A stretch of DNA of 32,000 bases from Candidatus Saccharimonadota bacterium (GTDB lineage Bacteria > Pseudomonadota > Gammaproteobacteria > Johnevansiales > Johnevansiaceae), in assembly GCF_902713755.1 (NCBI RefSeq), contig NZ_LR744089.1. The stretch is one strand, 5' to 3'. Below, piece after piece: positions 815 to 32,000 of this stretch. The translations under genes were made by a program, and so were the position numbers. Below the pieces are notes generated by a model. It ran no database searches. It was given only the letters and a program-made list of their open reading frames with translations, and was not told the origin of the DNA. Position 1 is the stretch's first letter. Each line of letters opens with the position of its first letter.

Positions 815-1882
815 TTAATAAATAATTAAATTACGAATATCATCTAATAATTTTATTATAAAATTTAAAAATTTTGCTGCATAAACTCCATTGATAAATC
901 TATGATCATACGATATACAAATTGGTAACATTATTTTAGGTTTAAATTCTTTTCCATTCCAAATGGGTTTAATTTTATTTTTCCCAATACCTAAAATCCC
1001 TAATTCAGGACTATTAATTATTGGAGTAAAACCTTTACCACCTATTATTCCTAAATTTGATATTGTAAAACAACCCCCTATCATATCATCAATTTTATTT
1101 TGGCCTAATAAAGTTCTTTTGGTTAATTCTTTTAATTCTAAAGCAATATCAATTATATTTTTTTTATCAACATGTTTGATTACAGGAACTAATAAACCTT
1201 TTGATGTATTCATAGCAATACTAATATTCGTATATTTTTTTAAAATTATTTTATTTTTTTTTATATCATAAAACATATTAAATTTATAAAATTTTTTTAA
1301 AGCACACGAACATACTTTTATTATAAAAGATAATAATGTTATTTTTATACCTATTTCATATTTTATTTTTTTTCTAAGTTGTTCTACTTTAGTAACATCT
1401 ATTTCATCAAAATGAGTTACATGAGGTATCGTTATCCAACTATTATGTAAATTTTTAGCACTAATACTTAATATATTTTTTTCTTTTTCTTCTATCTCTT
1501 TTTCTTCTATCTCTTTATTAATATACTTCTGTATATCTTCTTTTAAAATACAATTTTTCTTCCCACTTCCAATTATTTTATTTTTTTCTAAATCAATACC
1601 TATTTTTCTTGCCATTAATTTAACAGCTGGACCTGCTTTAACATTTAAACTAAGTTCTTCTATTTCAATTATTGACTTACCTGAATATATTTTATCACCT
1701 TCTTTTATTAAAATATTTTTTATTTTTCCTGATTTAGGTGAAGGTAAATCTATAGTAGCTTTTTCTGATTCTAAAACTACTATAGTTTCATCTTTTTTTA
1801 TACAATCACCTACTTTTACTGGTATTTCTATTACTTCAACTTTTTTATTTATATCACCTATTTCAGGTAGTTTGATGATCAA
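815..1882 (-). CDS. aceF: pyruvate dehydrogenase E2 (dihydrolipoamide acetyltransferase), single lipoyl domain
   Basis: Three recognisable domains: a lipoyl domain (VVLESEKATIDLPSP), a peripheral-subunit-binding domain (AGPAVKLMARKIGIDL) and a catalytic domain ending in DHRFINGVYAAKF. Lies directly downstream of aceE. TTG start at 1882 is preceded by AAGGA. Confidence 0.85.
   Translation of the reverse strand: MIIKLPEIGDINKKVEVIEIPVKVGDCIKKDETIVVLESEKATIDLPSPKSGKIKNILIKEGDKIYSGKSIIEIEELSLNVKAGPAVKLMARKIGIDLEKNKIIGSGKKNCILKEDIQKYINKEIEEKEIEEKEKNILSISAKNLHNSWITIPHVTHFDEIDVTKVEQLRKKIKYEIGIKITLLSFIIKVCSCALKKFYKFNMFYDIKKNKIILKKYTNISIAMNTSKGLLVPVIKHVDKKNIIDIALELKELTKRTLLGQNKIDDMIGGCFTISNLGIIGGKGFTPIINSPELGILGIGKNKIKPIWNGKEFKPKIMLPICISYDHRFINGVYAAKFLNFIIKLLDDIRNLIIY
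1487..1516 (-). repeat. 15-bp x2 perfect tandem duplication in the aceF linker
   Basis: ttcttctatctcttt occurs twice back to back and encodes the duplicated KEIEE-KEIEE. Confidence 0.85.
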
Positions 1883-4534: not shown

Positions 4535-5413
4535 CTATTTTATTACTTCTAATACTTTTAATGTTTTTAATAACGTATTATGATATTTTTTTGATAACCA
4601 TGTTAAAGGTAATCTTATACCTTTTTTTACTAACCCCATTTTGTTTAATGCCCATTTTACCGGTATAGGATTTGATTCAATACTTAATGCATAATGTAAA
4701 GGCCTTAATTTTTTATTTAGTTTATATGCTAATTCTATCTTACCTTTTATTGATGCTATACATAAATCATGCATTTTTTTAGGTACTATATTTGATGAAA
4801 CAGAAATAACTCCATGACCACCTGCTAATATAAATTCACAAGCTGTACTATCATCACCTGACAATAAATAAAACTCTTTATATTTTAAGTTTTCAATTAA
4901 TTCTAAAGCTCTTGATAAATTTCCTGACGATTCTTTTATTCCTACTATATTTTCAATCTTTGATAATTTTAAAATTGTTTCATTATTTATATCTACACCT
5001 GTTCGTTTAGGAACATTATATATAATTATTGGTAAGCCTACAGTAGATACTTCTTTAAAATGTTTATACATCCCTTCTTGCGTAGGTTTATTATAATATG
5101 GCGTGACTGATAACCCATACTCAGCACCTGCCTCTTTTGCCAATTTTGTTAACTTTACAGCATCAATTGTTGAATTGGACCCTATCCCTGCTATTACAGG
5201 TATTTTTTTATTAACTTCCTTAACAATTGTGCGTATTACTTTACAATGTTCCTCTAATGTCATTGTAGTATTTTCACCTGTGGTTCCAGCAGCTAATATT
5301 GCATCGGTTTTATTTTCTAAATGAAATTTTACTAAGTTTATTAATGATTCCCAATCTATTACACCATTTTTTTTCATGGGTGTAGCAATTGCAACTATAC
5401 TGCCCCTAATCAT
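4535..5413 (-). CDS. dapA: 4-hydroxy-tetrahydrodipicolinate synthase
   Basis: 292 aa. [29 protein letters not shown] and VGIKESSG (Schiff-base Lys region) are typical of DapA. Its ATG overlaps the dnaX TGA as ATGA. Confidence 0.95.
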
Positions 5414-6507
5414 ATCTTAACCTCTTTTTTTAAACATATTATTTTTAATAAAATCATTTCTAACCCAGATTTAAGATCTGGTATTTCTAACATATTTTTA
5501 CGTCCTTTTAATATTATTTTATAATATATATTTATTTCGTCTATAGTAAACTTATTAGAAAAATAAATTAATTCTTTATCTATCTCTTCTTTTATTAATT
5601 TAAAATACTTTGGTATTATTTTTGATAAAGCTATTTTATGAAATAAAATAATTAATTCATCACATATATATATAACATCTACTCCTACCGCATATAATTT
5701 TATTATTACTTTTAACACTTTATCTATATCACTTTGTATTAAAGCTTTTACTATTAAATATATATAATTTTTATTTGTTAATCCTATTAATTTTATTATA
5801 TTTTTTTCTTTTATTTTTTTTCCACAATAAATAATAGCTTGTTCTAATAACGATAAAGCATCTCTCATAGACCCTTTTGAAACTTTACATATTAATTTTA
5901 ATGCACTATTTTCTATTAATATTTTTTCTACAACTAATATTTTTTTTAAATATTTAATCATTAATTTACTATGTATTATTTTTAAATTAAATTGTAAACA
6001 TCTTGATACGATTGTAATTGGTATTTTTTTTAAATTAGTAGTTGCTAATAAAAATTTTATATATTCTGGAGGTTCTTCTAAAGTTTTTAATAAAGCATTA
6101 AAACTATATAAAGAAAGCATGTGTACTTCATCTATTAAATATATTTTATAACGACCTAATACAGGAGGATATTTTATATCTTCTAATATTTTTTTTGTTT
6201 CTTCAACTTTTGTTCGTGAAGCAGCATCTACTTCTATTAAATCACTAAATTTTCCTATATTTATTAATTGACAATTATTACATTTTTCACATGTATTTAT
6301 TAATATCCCTTTTTCACAATTTAAACATTTTGCAAATATTCTTGCTATTGTTGTTTTGCCAACACCCCTAGTGCCTGTAAATAAATAAGCATGATGTAAT
6401 CTATAATTTTTTATAGAATTTTTTAAAGATTTTATTACATGTTTTTGCCCTATTAACTCTTCGAATTTTTTTGGTCTTAATTTTAGAGCTAAAACTTTAT
6501 GGCTCAT
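5410..6507 (-). CDS. dnaX: DNA polymerase III gamma/tau subunit, short form (domains I-III only)
   Basis: [12 protein letters not shown], Walker [10 protein letters not shown], zinc module CLNCEKG..CEKCNNC, DEVHMLS and SRC sensor. Only 365 aa, ending in TGA. Confidence 0.9.
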
Positions 6508-8317: not shown

Positions 8318-9244
8318 TTATACTCTATTTTTTTCAATTAAATTTAAAAACATTTCTTCTAATCTATTAGACTTATTTCGCATAGATACAATCTCTATTT
8401 TATTTTTATCAAATATCTTAAAAATATCATTTAATTTTGTTCCTTTTTTTATTGATACTAATATTTTATAAGAATCTTTTTTTTTTATTTTTACTCCTTT
8501 TATTAATGGTAATTTTTTTAAATGATTTTTTGTTTCTAATAAAAATGTATTCACATCTACTTGTCTTAATAACGATTGCATACTAGTATTTTTTATAATT
8601 ATACCTTTATTTATAATTGCTACATTTCTACATAAGCTTTCAGCTTCTTCTAAATAGTGTGTTGTTAAAATAATAGTTTTTTTTTCATTTTTATTTATAT
8701 TATACATATATTTCCATATATTTTTTCTTACTTCAATATCTAATCCTGCCGTTGGTTCATCTAAAATCAACATTTTAGGATTATGTACTAAAGAACGCGC
8801 AATCATTAATCTTCTTTTCATTCCACCTGATAACTTTCTTACTATCATTTCTCTTTGTTTAAATAAACTTAAATCTTTTAATAATTTATAGATACGCACT
8901 TTAGAACACTTCTTCGATAGTCCATAATATCCTGCTTGTGTAAAAAGAATATTTTCAACTTTTTCAAATTGATTAAAATTATATTCTTGAGATACATATC
9001 CTAAATAATATTTAGCTTTTGAAAAATTTTTATCTATATCTATATCAAAAATTTTTATTTTTCCAAAAGTCTTTTTTATTAAAGAACTTATTATTCCTAT
9101 TGTTGTTGATTTTCCTGCTCCATTGGGTCCCAATAATGCAAAAAAATCTCCATTTATAACATTTAAATTTATATCTTTTACCGCATAAATATTGTTGTTA
9201 TAAATTTTAGTTAAGTTTTTTATACTTAATGCTATTTTATTCAT
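8318..9244 (-). CDS. yadG: ABC transporter ATP-binding protein (YadG family)
   Basis: Walker A GPNGAGKSTTIGIISSL, signature LSGGMKRRLMIARSL, Walker B ILDEPTAGLD, then TTHYLEEAESLCRNVAIINKG. Start placed at ATG 9244 (MNKIALSIKNL) because the longer ORF to 9292 runs into tRNA-Gly. Confidence 0.9.
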   Translation of the reverse strand: MNKIALSIKNLTKIYNNNIYAVKDINLNVINGDFFALLGPNGAGKSTTIGIISSLIKKTFGKIKIFDIDIDKNFSKAKYYLGYVSQEYNFNQFEKVENILFTQAGYYGLSKKCSKVRIYKLLKDLSLFKQREMIVRKLSGGMKRRLMIARSLVHNPKMLILDEPTAGLDIEVRKNIWKYMYNINKNEKKTIILTTHYLEEAESLCRNVAIINKGIIIKNTSMQSLLRQVDVNTFLLETKNHLKKLPLIKGVKIKKKDSYKILVSIKKGTKLNDIFKIFDKNKIEIVSMRNKSNRLEEMFLNLIEKNRV

Positions 9245-9258
9245 ATTTTTCCTTTTAT

Positions 9259-9332
9259 AGCGGGAAACGAGACTCGAACTCGCGACCTTCACCTTGGCAA
9301 GGTGACACTCTTACCAACTGAGCTATTCCCGC
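9259..9332 (-). tRNA. tRNA-Gly (anticodon GCC)
   Basis: Reverse complement is GCGGGAA-TA-GCTC-AGTTGGTAA-GAGT-G-TCACC-TTGCCAA-GGTGA-AGGTC-GCGAG-TTCGAGT-CTCGT-TTCCCGC-T. Confidence 0.9.
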
Positions 9333-16520: not shown

Positions 16521-17696
16521 TTATAATAATCTTACTTGCCATTCTTTATTTATTAAACATAATTTTCTATTACAATAATATTCATTGATACCAACTCCTG
16601 TTAATTCTTGTATTACTTTTTCTCCATAAAATCTTAAATCCTTTATTTTTTTTTCTAATTTTTTATCTTCTAAAACTGGTGCTAATATTCCTTCTTTTAT
16701 ATTTTGTTGTTTCTCATTTAATGATGTAAGTAATTTTAAATCCATAGTACACCCAGTAGATGGTCTTGTTTTTCCATATTTTTGACCAATATCATATCTA
16801 CCTCCTTTTGCTAAAGGTTTAACATATCCTGATACATAAGCTGTAAATATAAATCCATTATGATATTGATACCCTTTTAAATCTGATAAATCAAAATATA
16901 TTGATATATTCTTTACTTTTTTTTTTATAATTTTATATATTTCTTTTAATTCATCTAACAATACTTTTATTTCTTTTATAAAAGATATTTTTTTATATGC
17001 TTTTTTTATAATATTAAAATCACCGTGTAATTTAGGTAACATTTTTAATATTTTACTTATTTTTAAATCCACTTTTATTTTATCTATTAAATGATCAACA
17101 TCAGTATATGATTTATTATCTATTGCTTCAAATAAGATTTTCAAATATTTTTTTTTTATTTTAGATTTTTTGACTAATACTTTATATATACCAATATGTC
17201 CAAATGATAAATTGATATGTTTTGCGCCAGATAATATTAAACTTTTTATAGTAAGAATTATTATTTCTATATCTGCTTCAATACCTATATATCCTAGTAA
17301 TTCTATACCTAATTGTATAGGATTTCTTTCTAAATCATGTTGATTTTCATCAATAAAAGCACGAAACACGTTCGTGCAATAACAAACCCTATACGGTCCC
17401 TTATTTTTTAAAACATTAGAATCTATCCTAGCTATTTGAGGTGTTGAATCCGCACTTAAACCAATTAATTTACCACTTAACATATCAATTAATTTAACCG
17501 TTTGTATTTCTAAATCATATCCTACAACATTTAATAATGTTTCTAAAAATTCTATATGTGGAGGTATAATAAAATTATAACCATATTTATAATATAAATT
17601 TAATAATTTTATTCTTAATTTTTCTATTTGTATTGATTGAGGGGGTAATATTTCATTTATACCATCCGGTAATAAATTTTTTTCATAATTTTTCAT
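16521..17696 (-). CDS. hisZ: ATP phosphoribosyltransferase regulatory subunit HisZ (HisRS paralogue)
   Basis: NLLPDGINEILPP resembles the Pseudomonas-type HisZ N-terminus WLLPDGIEEVLPP. Also IPPHIEFLETLL, LSADSTPQIARID, RVCYCTNVFR, PIQLGIELLG and GGRYD. No anticodon-binding domain. Sits next to purA as in non-enteric proteobacteria. ATG 17696 overlaps the miaA TGA as ATGA. The track ORF uses an upstream TTG at 17714. Confidence 0.75.
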   Translation of the reverse strand: MKNYEKNLLPDGINEILPPQSIQIEKLRIKLLNLYYKYGYNFIIPPHIEFLETLLNVVGYDLEIQTVKLIDMLSGKLIGLSADSTPQIARIDSNVLKNKGPYRVCYCTNVFRAFIDENQHDLERNPIQLGIELLGYIGIEADIEIIILTIKSLILSGAKHINLSFGHIGIYKVLVKKSKIKKKYLKILFEAIDNKSYTDVDHLIDKIKVDLKISKILKMLPKLHGDFNIIKKAYKKISFIKEIKVLLDELKEIYKIIKKKVKNISIYFDLSDLKGYQYHNGFIFTAYVSGYVKPLAKGGRYDIGQKYGKTRPSTGCTMDLKLLTSLNEKQQNIKEGILAPVLEDKKLEKKIKDLRFYGEKVIQELTGVGINEYYCNRKLCLINKEWQVRLL

Positions 17697-18604
17697 ATAT
17701 GTATATTTTTCCAATATTTGGTAATATTACTTTTTAATAAATATACAATCATATCACTTATTTTATAATTATAAGCATCTAACCAAAAAGCATCTTTATA
17801 TTTACGTAACCATAATTTTTGTTTTTTTGCTAAATTTCTATTAGCTGATAATATTTTTTCTTTTAATATAAAAAAATTATATTTTCCATCAATAAATTCA
17901 CATATTTGGCGATATCCTATACTACGCATTACATTTATGTCTAAATTTTTTAACCTTTCTACTTCTGTAATAAAACCTTTTTCCAACATAATATTTAAAC
18001 GTAATAAAATATTTTTATACAATCTTTCCTTATTGTTATGTGTAATAATAATTTTTATTAACTTTCATGGAAAGTTTTCTTTATTTTTTTTTTTCCAAAA
18101 ATAATTAATTATTTTATCAGTGTTTAAATATACTTCTAAAAATCTTTTTATTCTATAAATATCATTATTATTTATTTCATTTTTTTTTACTAATTTATTT
18201 AATAATAATAAATAATATTTATTATATTTTTTTATTTTATATTGTAAAAAAGGTATTTTTGCTATTCCTTCTAATAAAATTTTAAAATAAAACATTGTAC
18301 CACCCACTAATATCGGTATTTTTCCTAAATTAATAATTTTTTTCATTACTTTTAATGCATCTTTACGAAACTCCCAAGCAGAATATTTTTCATTAGGATT
18401 TCTTATATCTATTAATTCATGGTATATATTTGTTGGTTTTGCTGTACCGATATCCATATGTCTATAAACCATAACAGAATCTACACTAATTAATTCACAA
18501 TTTAATATTTTTTTTAATTTTATAGCTATTTTTGTTTTACCTGCTGCTGTGGTCCCCATTAAAAATATCGCTATTGGTTGTTTTATTATATTATAGTTTT
18601 TCAT
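17693..18604 (-). pseudogene. miaA: tRNA dimethylallyltransferase MiaA interrupted by one in-frame TGA (18065-18067)
   Basis: The N-terminal ORF (18065-18604) has the P-loop [25 protein letters not shown] and [11 protein letters not shown]. The C-terminal ORF (17693-18022) has EKGFITEVERL, MRSIGYRQ and NRNLAKKQKLWLRK. Both are in the same frame and the 14 codons between them are open. The only defect is CCA-TGA-AAG. Confidence 0.85.
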
Positions 18605-18619
18605 ATTTTTTATTTAACT

Positions 18620-20284
18620 TTATATTTTACGTAAAAATAATTTATCTAATAAAAAATTAGATATTTTTATCCATGTAGGGCGTCCATGATTACAAATTTT
18701 GATATGTTTAGTTACTTCCATTTCACGTAACAATGAATTCATTTCTATGATCGTTAATTTTTTATTGGAACGTATACTATTATAACAAGAATATTTTATA
18801 AAATATTTTTTTAAAATATTTATTATATTTTTTTCAGAATGTACCAACTTAAATTTATCAAATATTTTTTTAAATATAAAATATATATTTATATTTTTGA
18901 AACCAAAATTTGGGATTTCTTTTATTAAAATTATATTAGATTTTATTATTTCTAATGTTATACCTACTTTTAAAAATTTGTCTTTATATTTTTTTATTAA
19001 TGTAATTATTTCATAATCTACTTTTAGACTAATCGGTAATAATAATTTTTGTCTTAAAATTTTCTTTTTTAATTGTTGTTTTTTTATTTTTTCATAGATA
19101 ATACGTTCATTTGCAGCATGAATATCTACAATAATTAAACCTTCTTTATTTTGTGAGATAATAAATTTTTCTTTATATTGACCTATTGCAAATCCTAAAA
19201 AGTTTTTATTTAAACTAGAATTTTTTTTTGTTTGAACAATGCATTCTTTGTTTGTTTCTACTTTCGACCGTTTATTTTTTAAATTACAATTATGTTTTAA
19301 TGCAAAATAAATTTTTTCAAAAATAAATTTTTTTATTATATTTTCATCCATAAATCGTACTTTAGATTTATTCGGATGTATATTTACATCTAATAATTGT
19401 GAATATATACTTATATATAAAATATACGATGGTTTTAAACCATTAAACATAATCTCATTATATGCATTTAATATAATTTTTTTTAATAAAGGATCATTTA
19501 TAATTCTTCTATTTATAAAAATATATTGTTTATTTTTCTTCACCTTATTGGTTGGTATAAACAACCAACCCATTATTTTTATTTTATTTTGTTTATCATA
19601 TTTATTTATAAACAAACTATTTTTTATCAACTCTTTTCCAAAAAGTTTACCAATTCTATTTATACATTCATCAAGTTTTACACACGGTAATAATTTATAT
19701 ATATTTTTATTATTTATTAAAGTCCAACAAATATCAAATCTTGATAAAACTAAATTATAAAACATTTCAAATATTTTATTCTTTTCAATTCTATCACTAG
19801 ATAAATATTTTAATTTTATTACATTATTATAAAATAAATCACTTATACTTACTGTCGTTCCTTTTAAATGCGGAAAGGGAAACATATCTATTTTTCCAAA
19901 TTTATTAGATATCCCATACCCCTTATACGTTTCATTATAAGGATTAGATATTAACTCATAATTCGATATTTCACCTATAGCTGATAACGCTTCACCTCTA
20001 AACCCTAATGTTTTAATATTATGAATATCTTTTAAACTTTTTATTTTACTTGTTGCGTTTTTAGTAAATACTAATTTCAAATCATCTTTATTTATTCCAC
20101 AACCATTATCTATAACTTCTATTAATTTTTTTCCACCTTTTTTAATATTAATTTTAATATTATTACTTCCAGCATCTATAGCATTTTCCACTAATTCTTT
20201 TAATACATATGAAGGATCTTGAATAATTTCTCCTGCCGATATTTTATTTATTAAGTTTTTTTTAAGTATTTTTATTCTATTCAT
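18620..20284 (-). CDS. mutL: DNA mismatch repair protein MutL
   Basis: GHKL ATPase motifs ISAGEIIQDPSYVLKELVENAIDAG, DNGCGI and GFRGEAL. C-terminal VDIHAANERIIYE. Start chosen at ATG 20284 (MNRIKILKKNLINKISAGE), which aligns with the MutL N-terminus. The track ORF begins at an upstream GTG at 20302. Confidence 0.9.
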   Translation of the reverse strand: MNRIKILKKNLINKISAGEIIQDPSYVLKELVENAIDAGSNNIKINIKKGGKKLIEVIDNGCGINKDDLKLVFTKNATSKIKSLKDIHNIKTLGFRGEALSAIGEISNYELISNPYNETYKGYGISNKFGKIDMFPFPHLKGTTVSISDLFYNNVIKLKYLSSDRIEKNKIFEMFYNLVLSRFDICWTLINNKNIYKLLPCVKLDECINRIGKLFGKELIKNSLFINKYDKQNKIKIMGWLFIPTNKVKKNKQYIFINRRIINDPLLKKIILNAYNEIMFNGLKPSYILYISIYSQLLDVNIHPNKSKVRFMDENIIKKFIFEKIYFALKHNCNLKNKRSKVETNKECIVQTKKNSSLNKNFLGFAIGQYKEKFIISQNKEGLIIVDIHAANERIIYEKIKKQQLKKKILRQKLLLPISLKVDYEIITLIKKYKDKFLKVGITLEIIKSNIILIKEIPNFGFKNINIYFIFKKIFDKFKLVHSEKNIINILKKYFIKYSCYNSIRSNKKLTIIEMNSLLREMEVTKHIKICNHGRPTWIKISNFLLDKLFLRKI

Positions 20285-20597
20285 AATCTTTTTTATTTTC
20301 ACAACTAGATTTATTTAATAAAATATATTTTTTTACTACTTTTAATTTAAAAATATATTTTTTGTTTAACTTTATTATGTTTTTTTTTATATCTACTTTA
20401 TATAAAGTTTTTTTTATATTTTTATATTTGATAATATAAATATCAATATTTAATTTTGTAAAATCTTTATATATCATTTTTATTTTTTTTCTTTTTGTTA
20501 TAAACAACATACTATTCAATTTGTTTTTATTCCTTTTATCTATAAAAAAATATATTTCTTTACTTTTTATTTTATTTATTGGAAAGTCTTTTTTCAT
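20277..20597 (-). CDS. hypothetical Lys-rich protein (106 aa), orphan; possibly a degenerate TsaE relic
   Basis: ATG at 20597 sits immediately after the ilvD stop, and the TAG overlaps the mutL start. The frame stays open for 106 codons in the most A+T-rich stretch of the window. No family motif is recognisable. EIYFFIDKRNKNKLNSMLFI weakly resembles [20 protein letters not shown] of TsaE. Confidence 0.4.
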   Translation of the reverse strand: MKKDFPINKIKSKEIYFFIDKRNKNKLNSMLFITKRKKIKMIYKDFTKLNIDIYIIKYKNIKKTLYKVDIKKNIIKLNKKYIFKLKVVKKYILLNKSSCENKKDYE

Positions 20598-27512: not shown

Positions 27513-27586
27513 CACGCCTGAGAGGATTCGAACCTCCAACTTTTTGATTCGTAATCAAATACTCTATCCAATTGAGTTACAGGCGC
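27513..27586 (-). tRNA. tRNA-Arg (anticodon ACG)
   Basis: Reverse complement is GCGCCTG-TA-ACTC-AATTGGATA-GAGT-A-TTTGA-TTACGAA-TCAAA-..-GGAGG-TTCGAAT-CCTCT-CAGGCGT-G. Confidence 0.88.
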
Positions 27587-27596
27587 TTTATTAATT

Positions 27597-27682
27597 TGGA
27601 GAGAGAGGGTTTCGAACCCTCGATAGATTTTTTCTATACTCCCTTAGCAGGGGAGTGCCTTCAACCACTCGGCCACCTCTCC
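27597..27682 (-). tRNA. tRNA-Ser (anticodon GCU)
   Basis: Reverse complement starts GGAGAGG-TG-GCCGAGTGGTTGAAGGC. Anticodon stem CTCCC/GGGAG with loop CTGCTAA. Long variable arm, T-arm GAGGG-TTCGAAA-CCCTC, acceptor TCTCTCC plus A. The 5' end abuts the lysC stop codon. Confidence 0.88.
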
Positions 27683-28957
27683 TTATATTTCTTCTTTTAT
27701 ATATTTTTTATCTAATTTAAAAGCTGTATGTAATACCTTTATTGCTAACTCCATATATTTTTCATCAATCATTATAGACATTTTTATTTCTGATGTAGAC
27801 ACTAATATAATATTTATACCGTTTTTTTCTAAATTATACATCAGTTTATTTGCTATGCATGAATGTGATTTTATTCCAACTCCAACAATTGAAATTTTAA
27901 CAATTTTATCATCACCTTCTATTTGTCCACCTAATTTATTACACACATATTCTTTTATCAAATTATACATTGTTTTATAATCATCTTTTGATACAGTAAA
28001 CGTTACATCAACTTGATTATTGATGTTTTTTATATTTTGAATACAACTATCTATATTATATTCTGATATTTTTTTTAAAATTTTATAACATACCCCGGGT
28101 AATACATCGTAAACAGAAACAGTTATTTTCGCCTCATTACAATTATATGTTATTCCTGAAATTAACGGTTTTTCCATATTTTTTTCTAAAATAGACCTCT
28201 TTTTTATTATTAATGTACCTGGATTATTATCAAAAACAGATAACACTCTTACGGGTATATTATATTTTCCTGCAAACTCCACAGAACGGATTTGTAATAC
28301 TTTTGATCCTAAACTAGACAATTCTAACATTTCCTCAACAGTAATATATGATATTAAACTGGATTTATTGCATAGTCTAGGATCTGTTGTATAAACGCCA
28401 GATACATCTGTATATATTTGACATTCATCTGCTTTAATAGATGTAGCTAATGCTAATGCTGTTGTATCTGACCCACCTCTTCCTAGAGTAGTTATATTTC
28501 CATATTTATCTATTCCTTGAAAACCCGCCACTACCACAATAATATTATTATTTATATCTTTATTTATTATTGAAGTATCTATATGTTGTATACGAGCTTT
28601 TGTATACACACTATCTGTAAATATAGATAATTGTGCTCCTGTATAAGATTTTGATTTAACACCAACTTTATTTAAAGCCATCGATAATAAAGACATAGTT
28701 ACTTGTTCACCAGTTGATATCAAAATATCTAACTCTCTATTATTATAAATATTATTTACTTTTTTTTCATTATACATTTTTTTAGCTAAACATAATAATC
28801 TATTGGTTTCTCCACTCATAGCGGATACTACAACAATTATTTTATGATTTTTTTTATAAAATAATTTGATTTGTTTAGCAATATTTTTTATATTTTTTAT
28901 TGACCCTACTGATGTCCCCCCAAATTTTTGTACAATAATTCCCATTCTTATCCTCAT
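27683..28957 (-). CDS. lysC: aspartate kinase
   Basis: IVQKFGGTSVG, VVSAMSGETN, TTLGRGGSDTTA, YTDVSGVYTTDPR and two C-terminal ACT domains. There are two candidate starts. ATG 28957 overlaps the alaS TGA as ATGA. ATG 28945 (MGIIVQKFGG) is preceded by GAGGA. Confidence 0.93.
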   Translation of the reverse strand: MRIRMGIIVQKFGGTSVGSIKNIKNIAKQIKLFYKKNHKIIVVVSAMSGETNRLLCLAKKMYNEKKVNNIYNNRELDILISTGEQVTMSLLSMALNKVGVKSKSYTGAQLSIFTDSVYTKARIQHIDTSIINKDINNNIIVVVAGFQGIDKYGNITTLGRGGSDTTALALATSIKADECQIYTDVSGVYTTDPRLCNKSSLISYITVEEMLELSSLGSKVLQIRSVEFAGKYNIPVRVLSVFDNNPGTLIIKKRSILEKNMEKPLISGITYNCNEAKITVSVYDVLPGVCYKILKKISEYNIDSCIQNIKNINNQVDVTFTVSKDDYKTMYNLIKEYVCNKLGGQIEGDDKIVKISIVGVGIKSHSCIANKLMYNLEKNGINIILVSTSEIKMSIMIDEKYMELAIKVLHTAFKLDKKYIKEEI

Positions 28958-30180
28958 TTTTTTAAAATATTTTTTATTTTATTTTTTATTTTTTTAATAT
29001 ATAATATACTACTAGTTTTTATATACGAAAACTCATTATTGTTATTATAAATAATATTTTGATTTGTTTTTAAAATTACACTATATTGAATGATATTTAA
29101 ACAATCTTTAGTTATTTTAATAACTACATATATAGAATTATTCTTAATATAATATAAAATTAATATACTTTTATTTAGTATAAAATTTAGTATTTTATTT
29201 AGTATTAAAAATAAATCTTTTTTATACTCAATTTTTATGTTTTTTATTAAAATTTTATATTCAAATAAATAAAACATTTGATTTAATAACTTTTTTATTA
29301 ATTGTTTTATCTTTATTTTTTTTAACCTTTTTAAATTATCAATATATATTTTTTGTTTATTTATAATATTTAATATATTCTTTTCTATATTTTTTATATT
29401 TTGTTTAATGTTATAAGATATATTTTTAACAATTAAATTATTTTTGAAGATATAATGTATAGCTTTTTTATTAGTTAATGCCTCAATACGACGTATTCCT
29501 TTAGATACACTTCTTTCTGAAACAATACAAAAATTAACAATATTTTTTGTATTGTTGATATGAGTTCCATTACAAAATTCTATTGAATAACTACCCTCTT
29601 TTCCAATACATACTAACTGTATATTTTTTTTGTCTTGTCTTGATAATTTTTTTATAGAAATTATATTTTGTTTTATAATTTCATTGTTCATTAATTGTTC
29701 AATAATAAATAATTGTTCATTTGAAATTTTTTTATAATAATTAAAATCAAAGGTTATTTTTTTTTCATTAATTAAAAATCCTTTTTTCACAATATTTAAT
29801 ACTCTTTTTAACGTTTCATTTAATAAATGTATTGCAGAATGATTTATACTTATTTTATAACGAAACACTTTATCTATATAAATATTTACATTAGTATCAC
29901 TCAATAAATAACCTTTTAATAATCTTCCGATATGCATATATAAATTTTTATACTTTTTTACCTGATATACTTTAAATTTTCCTATATCATTATATATATA
30001 TCCAATATCACTAATTTGTCCACAAGATTCAAAAACAAATGATGTTGTTTTTAAAATAATAATTCCTTCTATATTTTCTTTTATAACTTGTATTTTTTTA
30101 CCTTTTTTATTACAAATTTGTATTATATTACTTTTAATGTTTTTTTTCCTTTCTTGTATATATTTAATAACCTCTATTCT
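28954..30180 (-). CDS. alaS: alanine--tRNA ligase, C-terminal half only (beta-barrel, editing and degenerate C-terminal domains); truncated gene or stand-alone editing protein
   Basis: The frame is open for 408 codons, from the TAA at 30181-30183 to the TGA at 28954-28956. The first ATG is at 29937 (the 327-aa track ORF). Upstream of it, TSFVFESCGQISDIGYI matches TPFYAESGGQxGDxG. Downstream lie HSAIHLL (HxxxH), FCNGTH (CxxxH) and GIRRIEALT. No class II catalytic domain is present. Confidence 0.8.
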   Translation of the reverse strand, partial: RIEVIKYIQERKKNIKSNIIQICNKKGKKIQVIKENIEGIIILKTTSFVFESCGQISDIGYIYNDIGKFKVYQVKKYKNLYMHIGRLLKGYLLSDTNVNIYIDKVFRYKISINHSAIHLLNETLKRVLNIVKKGFLINEKKITFDFNYYKKISNEQLFIIEQLMNNEIIKQNIISIKKLSRQDKKNIQLVCIGKEGSYSIEFCNGTHINNTKNIVNFCIVSERSVSKGIRRIEALTNKKAIHYIFKNNLIVKNISYNIKQNIKNIEKNILNIINKQKIYIDNLKRLKKIKIKQLIKKLLNQMFYLFEYKILIKNIKIEYKKDLFLILNKILNFILNKSILILYYIKNNSIYVVIKITKDCLNIIQYSVILKTNQNIIYNNNNEFSYIKTSSILYIKKIKNKIKNILKK

Positions 30181-30203
30181 TTACTATAACTATAATTTAT
30201 ACT

Positions 30204-30250
30204 ATAATTTATATAATACAACTTATGAAAAATAATTTATATAATACAAC
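30204..30250 (+). repeat. 19-bp direct repeat (ataatttatataatacaac) flanking the mutS start codon, period 28 bp
   Basis: Copies lie at 30204-30222 and 30232-30250, separated by ttatgaaaa, which contains the ATG. A further tandem tataatttata x2 lies at 30191-30213. Confidence 0.85.
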
Positions 30251-32000
30251 CCCAATAATTACACAATATTTAAAAATAAAAAATAAATATAAAAATATTT
30301 TATTATTATATCGAATGGGTGATTTTTATGAATTTCTTTTTGAAGATGCACATAAAGCGTCTGCTTTATTAAATATACAATTAACTAGTAAAGGAAAATA
30401 TAATAATAAACCTATTCCAATGGCTGGAATACCTTATCATAGGATAAATACATATTTAAAACGTATCATAACTAACGGAATATCTGTTGCTATTTGTGAA
30501 CAAATACAAAATAATAAAAAAACTAATACCAAATTAATAGAAAGAAAAGTAATTCGAGTAATAACACCTGGAACTATATATGAAGAAAATTTATTAGATG
30601 AAAATAAAGATAATTTAATTTTATCAATAATATATAAAAATACTATATGGGGTATTTCTTGGTTAGAATTCACAACAGGCGATTTTGGAGTTTTAGAAGT
30701 TAATAATACACACAATTTAATTTTAGAATTAGAAAGATTAAATCCTGTTGAATTATTAATTCCTAGTTCAACTAAACACTTACCTACACTTCCCATAAAA
30801 AAATCAATAATAAAATATATAAATGATGACTTTTTTAATTATAACAATGCTTATAATATATTGTATAACAAATTAAACATAAAAAATATAGATACTAAAC
30901 TTCATAATGGTATATCTGCAGCTGGGGCTATAATTCAATATATAAATAATAATAAAATTTATAATTTATCACATATTAATCATTTAATTTTTGAAAAAAA
31001 CAAATATAAGTTAAATATAGATCTTACCACTAAAAAACATTTAGAACTTGATATAAATGTTAATGGTAAACAAGAAAATACATTATTTAGTGTTTTAAAC
31101 ACCACAATGACAAATATGGGTAGTAGATTATTAAAAAAATGGATTAATAATCCCATTACAAATTATAAATTAATTGAATTAAGACAAAATGCTATTCATA
31201 TTATTATAAATAATGATTTAATATATATTTTACAAAACAATATCAAAAAAATTGGCGATATAGAACGTATAATTACTAGAATAGCTTTAAAAAAAGCAAA
31301 ACCCCTAGATTTAATCAAATTAAAAAACGCTTTAAAAGTATTTCCTAAAATTAAAAATATATTAAATAGAATTTTAAAAAAAAATCAACACATAAAATCT
31401 ATACTTAATAATATATATCTATATATAAAAATATATCCAAATATAGATTTACTTTTACATGATGCTTTAATCGACAATCCTCCTAATACTATTAGAGATG
31501 GATATGTAATAAAATCTCATTTTAATCTCAAATTAGATACATTACGTGAAATCTATAATAATTCAGAAAAGTATATAAAAAAATTTGAAAATAAAGAAAA
31601 AATTCGTACAGGTATCTCTAAACTAAAAATTAATTTTAATAAACTTAATGGTTTTTTTATAGAATTACCTAAAAAACATACTTACAAAATACCTAAAGAA
31701 TATATAAAAAATAAAACATTAAAACATTCAGAAAGATTTTATTCTAAAGAATTAAAATCTTTTGAAAATTTATTAATAGAATCTAAAGAAAACTCAATAG
31801 AATATGAAAAAAAAATTTATAAAAAAATAATTAATATTCTTATTAATAATATTAATTGTTTATTAAAAACATCAAAAGCAATAGCAGCATTAGACGTGAT
31901 TACAACTTTATCTGAAAGAGCTTTAGCTCTGAATTTTTGTAAACCAATAATAAATAAAAACAAAATAGGCATAAAAATCATAGAGGGTAGACATCCTATA
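30225..32000 (+). CDS. mutS: DNA mismatch repair protein MutS (5' partial, continues beyond the window)
   Basis: Not in the ORF track because no stop codon is reached. My translation from ATG 30225 gives [71 protein letters not shown], then [14 protein letters not shown], and ends IIEGRHPI at the window edge. That is 592 codons with no stop. Confidence 0.95.
   Translation, partial: [592 protein letters not shown]

Follow-up and report, generated by a model that had tools for sequence, protein, structure and literature searches.

A minus-strand reading frame between lysC and the divergent mutS, in a stretch of bacterial DNA 32,000 nucleotides long (hereafter the window), encodes the second half of an alanyl-tRNA synthetase (AlaRS) with no first half beside it. 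The locus raises the question of what this frame is, how it lost its partner, whether it is still translated and what its product may do. The window is assigned by its sequence to 'Candidatus Portiera aleyrodidarum', the obligate primary symbiont of whiteflies, and the frame to the published gene alaXp. The reading developed below, held with moderate confidence at about an even chance, is that alaXp specifies a free-standing AlaX-type protein, a predicted binder of tRNA-Ala and deacylase for tRNA-Ala mischarged with Ser or Gly, which would be weakly constrained and would begin at a non-canonical or internal start codon.

The editing half of AlaRS in Portiera

As stated in the preliminary description of this DNA, the frame is open for 408 sense codons, from the TAA at 30183-30181 to the TGA at 28956-28954, and its upstream stop is separated from the mutS ATG by 41 bp (Table 1). 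At the stop probability of 0.12 per codon given by the strand composition, 408 consecutive open codons have a probability of about 1e-23, and the 81 codons preceding the first canonical start a probability of about 3e-5; the longest open stretch in shuffled sequence had a median of 40 codons and a maximum of 84. There is no competing frame, the other five reaching at most 72 open codons across the region.

The frame carries the LKTTSFVFESCGQISDIGYI barrel motif, HSAIH, FCNGTH and GIRRIEALT, all of them listed in that description, and profiles and alignment bore out its assignment to the half of AlaRS that comprises the beta-barrel, the editing domain and the C-terminal part. Residues 11-104 match positions 458-550 of the 552 in Pfam tRNA-synt_2c, above the gathering score, and residues 189-233 match tRNA_SAD (41.3 bits; gathering cut-off 24), while Pfam DHHA1 gave no match at E <= 0.01. 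The NCBIfam alaS model TIGR00344 aligns over its positions 456-832 of 847 with residues 9-377 (192 bits; cut-off 457), and the AlaXM equivalog NF040865 scores 61.5 bits (cut-off 300). Since the alaS model is the best match and AlaXM falls far below its cut-off, alaXp is a derivative of AlaRS rather than an AlaXM orthologue. The match to tRNA-synt_2c begins only at position 458 of 552, so the frame lacks the catalytic domain with motifs 1-3 by which a class II alanine--tRNA ligase is recognised. In the alignment with Escherichia coli AlaRS the frame starts at about residue 459, adjoining the boundary of the aminoacylation domain at residue 461 as had been proposed, and extends to the C-terminus. 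The four zinc ligands, equivalent in order to E. coli H564, H568, C666 and H670 (HxxxH and CxxxH), and the KGIRRIEALT motif are unchanged across seven Portiera sequences.

An AlphaFold model built from a 13-sequence alignment (mean predicted local distance difference test score, pLDDT, of 72) comprises four parts, namely a barrel, an alpha/beta editing domain, a long helix and a small alpha/beta domain (aa 303-407). In Foldseek comparisons the model matched AlaRS, AlaX-M and AlaX-S with a probability of 1.00. Full-length AlaRS aligned over about 415 columns (9a7x_B, E 7e-28; 3wqy, E 6e-20), AlaX-M gave target template modelling (TM) scores of 0.71-0.76, and the C-terminal dimerisation domain of Archaeoglobus fulgidus (2zvf) was weakly similar (E 0.02). 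The predicted architecture matches that of a long free-standing AlaX or of the 438-875 fragment of E. coli AlaRS.

The nearest relatives of the protein, in a search among 5.8 billion proteins, were six proteins, each from Portiera or from a whitefly-type assembly, with identities of 99, 91, 74, 66, 55 and 54%; two of them are named at NCBI as 'alanyl-tRNA editing protein' or 'alanine--tRNA ligase-related'. Overall identity to the 433-aa protein of the type found in the Portiera of Trialeurodes vaporariorum (TV-like) is 77%. The neighbours in the window are collinear with Portiera contigs (mutL, ilvD, lon, hisS, der, tRNAs, lysC, alaXp, mutS), and alaXp lies immediately upstream of lysC at every locus compared (L001-L007). 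The gene directly upstream of alaXp is mutS in L001-L005, alaS-N lies between them in L006, and leuS occupies this place in the rearranged L007. The order mutS, alaXp, lysC is repeated in the independent assemblies L001 (4 samples), L002, L003, L004 and L005. An assembly artefact at the mutS/alaXp junction is ruled out by this recurrence.

A complete alaS in the Portiera of Aleurodicus floccissimus, its division into alaS and alaXp in that of A. dispersus, and the maintenance of alaXp alone in the Bemisia and Trialeurodes lineages were reported by Santos-Garcia et al. (2015, Genome Biol Evol; PMC5322561). A 2020 paper extended the absence of alaS to the Portiera of Pealius mori and Singhiella simplex, and the literature on Portiera alaXp also includes PMC7821994. 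As alaXp was already described in 2015, its finding in the window is the rediscovery of a published feature: the gene, the symbiont and the neighbours are the same, as are the loss of the catalytic half and the retention of the editing half. The window strain nevertheless represents another lineage, 99% identical to Logan contigs only, and its alaXp differs from the published ones in having no canonical start before the barrel, an editing domain shorter by 15 codons, and near-neutral recent evolution. The lost canonical start, the pocket substitutions, the ratio of non-synonymous to synonymous change (dN/dS, or omega) of about 1 in the clade formed by the window strain, L001 and L002 (the crown), and the avoidance of stop codons appear to be absent from the papers on Portiera alaXp consulted here. 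The tight abutment of alaXp and lysC is, like the details of start, pocket and relaxation, a modest addition to published knowledge.

Table 1. Features of the alaXp locus and its surroundings, in coordinates of the window
Feature	Position	Strand	Basis
alaXp open frame, 408 sense codons and TGA stop; C-terminal half of AlaRS	28954..30180	-	reading frame, profiles, Portiera orthologues
Upstream in-frame TAA closing the alaXp frame	30181..30183	-	sequence
In-frame ATA, second codon site; ATT in L002, ATG (out of frame) in L001	30175..30177	-	alignment
Shine-Dalgarno-like AAGGA, shared with L001 and L002	30147..30151	-	sequence, alignment
Candidate near-cognate start ATT, in frame, 8 nt past AAGGA	30136..30138	-	sequence, alignment
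First canonical start ATG, Met82	29935..29937	-	frame scan, alignment
Beta-barrel domain, aa 15-102, includes FESCGQISDIG	29875..30138	-	AlphaFold model, E. coli alignment
Editing domain, aa 104-236; zinc ligands H114, H118, C203, H207; pocket I117, K132, F135	29473..29871	-	Pfam, alignment, model
Helix of 64 residues, aa 237-300; AlaRS coiled-coil linker	29281..29472	-	AlphaFold model
Degenerate C-Ala-like globular domain, aa 301-408, GGKGGG deleted	28957..29280	-	Pfam, alignment, model
Spacer of 41 bp between alaXp frame and divergent mutS	30184..30224	.	remnant site of former catalytic half
mutS, 5' 592 codons, ATG at 30225, continues past window end	30225..32000	+	ORF, profile
GAGGA, lysC ribosome-binding site, overlaps alaXp TGA	28951..28955	-	sequence
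lysC (aspartokinase), conserved ATG 8 nt past alaXp stop	27683..28945	-	ORF, profile
tRNA-Ser(GCU) and tRNA-Arg(ACG), end of ancestral alaS-lysC-tRNA block	27513..27682	-	tRNA calls

Loss of the catalytic half

The gene order of E. coli (pncC-recA-recX-alaS-csrA-tRNASer-tRNAArg) bears out the ancestral gammaproteobacterial recA-alaS-csrA-tRNA block invoked in the preliminary description, in which it was proposed that one deletion took both cinA-recA-recX and the 5' half of alaS. In the Portiera of A. dispersus (AD-CAI) the order is mutS, alaS-N (362 aa), alaXp (488 aa), lysC, with none of recA, recX and cinA between mutS and the split alaS. Hence the recA block had already disappeared at a time when alaS remained whole, which refutes the single deletion, and the full alaS of A. 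floccissimus and the partly eroded catalytic half in L005 speak against it as well; we give that model practically no credence. In L005 the 377-nt spacer between mutS and alaXp still holds decayed catalytic-domain fragments, matching residues 211-246 of the A. dispersus N-half (69% identity over 36 aa, E 2e-8). No recognisable catalytic relics were found in the 190-nt spacer of the T. vaporariorum type or in the 41-nt spacer of the window.

The split alaS beside mutS in A. dispersus and the relics in L005 thus show the loss of the catalytic half to have been stepwise. The path was one of fission, decay of the catalytic gene and deletion: in the Portiera ancestor a full alaS stood beside mutS and came apart into one gene for the catalytic part and another for the editing and C-terminal parts, the former of which then decayed and was deleted down to the present 41-bp spacer.

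The preliminary description had also considered the frame as one half of a split gene, an arrangement like that of Nanoarchaeum equitans in which another locus of this genome would supply the catalytic half. The Portiera of A. dispersus, which is truly divided into two adjacent genes, offers a precedent, but a search of the 32-kb window by tblastn with its AlaRS N-half found no catalytic-domain sequence, as the description had also noted for the vicinity of the gene. Moreover, alaS is reportedly missing from the published complete genomes of the Portiera of T. vaporariorum, Bemisia tabaci, P. mori and S. simplex, and the window is syntenic with a T. vaporariorum-like contig. A split gene is accordingly most improbable. 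When the A. dispersus catalytic half was used to look for a catalytic gene among proteins of related whitefly samples, AlaRS of free-living organisms at about 50% identity saturated the result and even the query itself was not recovered, so that this search is uninformative about absence.

Translation, constraint and possible function

If alaXp is a free-standing editing protein, it would be translated from a near-cognate AUU behind AAGGA, from the ATA at 30177 and/or from an internal AUG. The product would act, or would have acted until recently, in trans on mischarged tRNA-Ala by binding and deacylation, and tRNA-Ala itself would be charged by a host-supplied AlaRS. Neither the window nor the Portiera loci compared with it contain a tRNA-Ala gene; the G3:U70 pair of this tRNA is required by host AlaRS and by AlaX-type proteins alike. 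With constraint relaxed in the clade, the gene may be on its way out.

Values of omega were obtained by the Nei-Gojobori method; because they are inflated by the extreme A+T bias of this DNA, neighbouring genes were used as calibrators and absolute values were not read. The calibrators lysC, der, hisS, mutS and lon gave 0.15-0.51, and alaXp gave 0.61 against TV, 0.79 against A. dispersus and 0.70 against L007, with 0.33-0.54 in the barrel, 0.55-0.71 in the editing domain and 0.6-1.3 in the C-terminal part. All alaXp lineages are free of stops and every indel is a multiple of three. When the observed substitutions were re-placed at random, 11-23 stops were expected in deep pairs (P of no stop < 2e-4) and 4.15 between the window and L002 (P of no stop = 0.010). 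These comparisons show that selection against truncation of the frame persists.

The first ATG, GTG or TTG in the frame is the ATG at 29937-29935, and none occurs among the 81 codons upstream, as originally observed. Starting there would drop about two thirds of the beta-barrel; gene callers begin the clade orthologues at the internal ATG, with products of 327 and 332 aa. At the Met82 site the orthologues of the TV-like type, L005 and A. dispersus have Leu, and L007 has Phe. Upstream of the internal ATG the frame is open for 81, 71 and 94 codons in the three clade strains and for 100 codons in the Bemisia-type L007, with no canonical start in any of these four upstream frames. Within the clade the upstream 81 codons show only 5 differences, too few for a meaningful dN/dS. 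The barrel-coding stretch is the best-conserved part of alaXp (86% identical to the TV-like sequence versus 77% overall), the upstream 81-codon/barrel region has an omega of 0.33 against TV, and the final 147 nt before ATG 29937 show no difference among the three clade strains, which argues that the upstream region is still translated.

Where such translation might begin is suggested by the AGGA at 30150-30147, followed after 8 nt by the ATT at 30138-30136, an arrangement pointed out in the preliminary description. Behind the same AAGGA, at a distance of 7-8 nt, stand an in-frame ATT in the window, ATA in L001 and ATC in L002, and Shine-Dalgarno-like cores precede 6 of the 23 genes of the window, against a background of 5.9%. 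Near-cognate initiation behind AAGGA is supported by these counterparts and is plausible, as had been suggested, although a coincidence is possible in such A+T-rich DNA. The ATA at 30175..30177 is a possible decayed ancestral start; with three states (ATA, ATG and ATT) in three strains, parsimony gives no ancestral state for this site.

Two other upstream regions are of note in their own right. In L001 (approximately 9181-9215), a strain 99% identical to the window, a 20-nt deletion lies just upstream of the barrel part of alaXp and leaves an ATG-begun mini-ORF (open reading frame) of 13 codons; its TAA runs into the ATA ATA codons of the alaXp frame. In L007 (9690-9800, identical in L008) an ATG-begun N-terminus, MQEIKYLLQST..., stands in the +1 frame relative to alaXp; upstream come a 1.3-kb A+T-rich spacer with GTT-rich repeats and, in this rearranged order, leuS in place of mutS.

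Several observations weigh against an active editing protein in the present-day clade. A usable canonical start before the barrel is missing from the window, L001 and L002; the deletion in L001 shifts its ATG out of frame, and the out-of-frame stretch of L007 resembles the N-termini of other lineages, and changes of no fewer than two kinds underlie the loss of the canonical start. All Portiera sequences, that of A. dispersus included, have a deletion of the glycine-rich C-Ala motif (GGxGGG). In the editing pocket of the window protein, I117, K132 and F135 replace E. coli T567, Q584 and S587, and the bulky pocket-occluding substitutions T567F/S587W/C666F abolish editing by E. coli AlaRS (PMC5409826). 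Between the window and L002, the synonymous differences in alaXp amount to 4.8 and the non-synonymous ones to 31.2 (omega about 1.4; neighbours 0.16-0.48), in contrast to 22 and 26, respectively, in the neighbouring genes (Fisher p = 0.002). Conserved columns show no deficit of crown replacements (p = 0.41), and of the 11 replacements that hit columns kept invariant by four other lineages, 8 belong to the crown (P about 4e-5). The crown makes up 16% of the stem-plus-crown distance of the neighbouring genes, and the long stem of the clade carries only 3 replacements at otherwise invariant columns. Amino-acid change within the clade therefore proceeds at about the neutral rate (dN/dS of about 1); protein-level constraint persisted through most of the period after the loss of the catalytic half and has been relaxed recently in this clade. 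The earlier statement that the remnant is still under selection thus stands in so far as the frame is kept open beyond chance; it does not hold for the amino-acid sequence in the clade, where change is nearly neutral and three pocket residues have been replaced.

The same observations accord with the possibility, tentative in our estimate, that alaXp is an incipient pseudogene or a translated leader, the protein no longer mattering in the clade and the frame remaining open either because ribosomes have to reach its stop codon for lysC to be expressed or because decay is too recent to have given rise to a stop. Besides the crown omega of about 1, the hits at conserved sites and the lack of any strain with a usable canonical start before the barrel, the junction with lysC favours this explanation: the alaXp TGA lies within TGAGGA, 8 nt ahead of the lysC ATG, the gap between the two genes is 1-8 nt in all lineages without the catalytic half as against 36 nt in A. 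dispersus, and no space is left for a separate lysC promoter outside alaXp. The editing domain is also shrinking by in-frame deletions, of 15 codons in the window and 39 in L005. Against such a loss of importance stand the long-term invariance of the zinc ligands and GIRRIEALT, the omega below 1 of the barrel and editing parts and the 147 unchanged nucleotides, as well as the contrast between the catalytic half, which belonged to the same transcription unit and was wholly erased, and the editing half, of which every lineage has retained 1.2 kb. The more specific proposal, that alaXp is now a long translated leader whose amino-acid sequence drifts, whose frame is still selected to stay open and to be read from an AUU/AUA/AUC start following AAGGA, and whose termination in the lysC Shine-Dalgarno sequence drives lysC, is in our view rather unlikely. 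The gene lysC is central to the symbiosis, and if the leader proposal were true, translation of alaXp would serve its expression.

A promoter scan of 28800-30500 returned 19 sites, compared with 22.6 expected in shuffles, and thus no signal for a transcription start. The sole terminator-like hairpin in the same interval (30344-30362, plus strand) is situated within the 5' part of the mutS coding sequence. In L005 (703-1935 and 3386-4689) the 39-codon in-frame deletion of alaXp lies between HxxxH and CxxxH, and the gene calls break der (engA) into two pieces, of 187 and 120 aa.

The distribution of the pocket residues bears on a further alternative, a new role for alaXp as a tRNA-Ala-binding adaptor or partner of an imported host AlaRS, or another use of the zinc site with a remodelled pocket. 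Position T567 is Ile in every Portiera lineage without the catalytic half; Q584 is replaced by Lys in the window and TV-like proteins and by Thr in L007, and S587 by Phe in the window and L007 and by Cys in the TV-like protein, Gln and Ser being retained in L005. T567 and Q584 are unchanged in the Portiera of A. dispersus and in the outgroup AlaRS, where position 587 is S or Q; that of A. dispersus itself has T, Q and S. Such changes common to the lineages without the catalytic half (T567I, Q584K/T, S587F/C), combined with retained zinc ligands and overall fold, would suit a new role. Nevertheless, nothing positively indicates a partner, conservation of S587 is not universal (Ala in A. fulgidus, Gln in two outgroup sequences), and the pocket changes could reflect relaxed constraint alone; a new role is considered improbable.

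Comparison with known systems and other genes of the window

With the free-standing AlaX proteins (AlaX-S, -M and -L; PDB 1WNU, 2E1B and 9IUW) alaXp shares the HxxxH/CxxxH zinc site, tRNA_SAD and the combination of barrel and editing folds, and with the long-form AlaX also the presence of a C-terminal extension. Unlike AlaX, it stems from an in-situ truncation of alaS and not from an old paralogue; its genome probably has no AlaRS of its own, and its pocket is altered and its C-Ala motif lost.

A closer counterpart in extent is the E. coli AlaRS fragment 438-875, comprising the editing and C-Ala domains, which Beebe et al. are said to have found in 2008 to be active in trans on Ser-tRNA-Ala. 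Its boundaries are nearly equal to those of alaXp, although this fragment was made in the laboratory and has both a wild-type pocket and an undamaged C-Ala, and the activity of the Portiera protein is a predicted one. The split AlaRS of N. equitans and the fission in AD-CAI resemble the window in the division of AlaRS between catalytic and editing parts, but both keep the two halves, whereas the window is without the catalytic one; the AD-CAI split, at about E. coli residue 385, lies upstream of the start of the window frame.

A symbiont that drops the charging half of AlaRS and keeps the proofreading half presents a striking case of host-symbiont integration, one that has been in the Portiera literature since 2015. 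Retention of alaXp implies that an imported enzyme would charge tRNA-Ala and that a guard against the mistranslation of alanine codons as serine would stay valuable. The gene may also offer, as a natural experiment on a small scale, a view of the final loss or repurposing of a retained domain, and it is relevant to annotation, as gene callers shorten the protein to 327 aa.

Among the other genes of the window, miaA (17693-18604, minus strand) is a pseudogene divided into two ORFs of 179 aa (profile positions 1-182) and 109 aa (profile positions 200-286), matching a miaA pseudogene reported for the Portiera of T. vaporariorum. The dnaX gene (5410-6507, minus strand) encodes 365 aa that match positions 1-359 of 655, the C-terminal tau part being absent. 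The pyruvate dehydrogenase E2 gene aceF (815-1882, minus strand; 355 aa) specifies one lipoyl-type segment and the catalytic domain, and its score is well below the equivalog cut-off. Two minus-strand ORFs, 145-810 (221 aa) and 20277-20597 (106 aa), have no NCBIfam match; the latter has same-position counterparts of 105 aa in the TV type and 141 aa in the Portiera of A. dispersus. Finally, the longest ORF of an ABC ATPase gene (8318-9292, minus strand) shares 34 nt with a tRNA-Gly gene on the same strand (9259-9332); since its match to the family begins near residue 21, the real start is probably further downstream.

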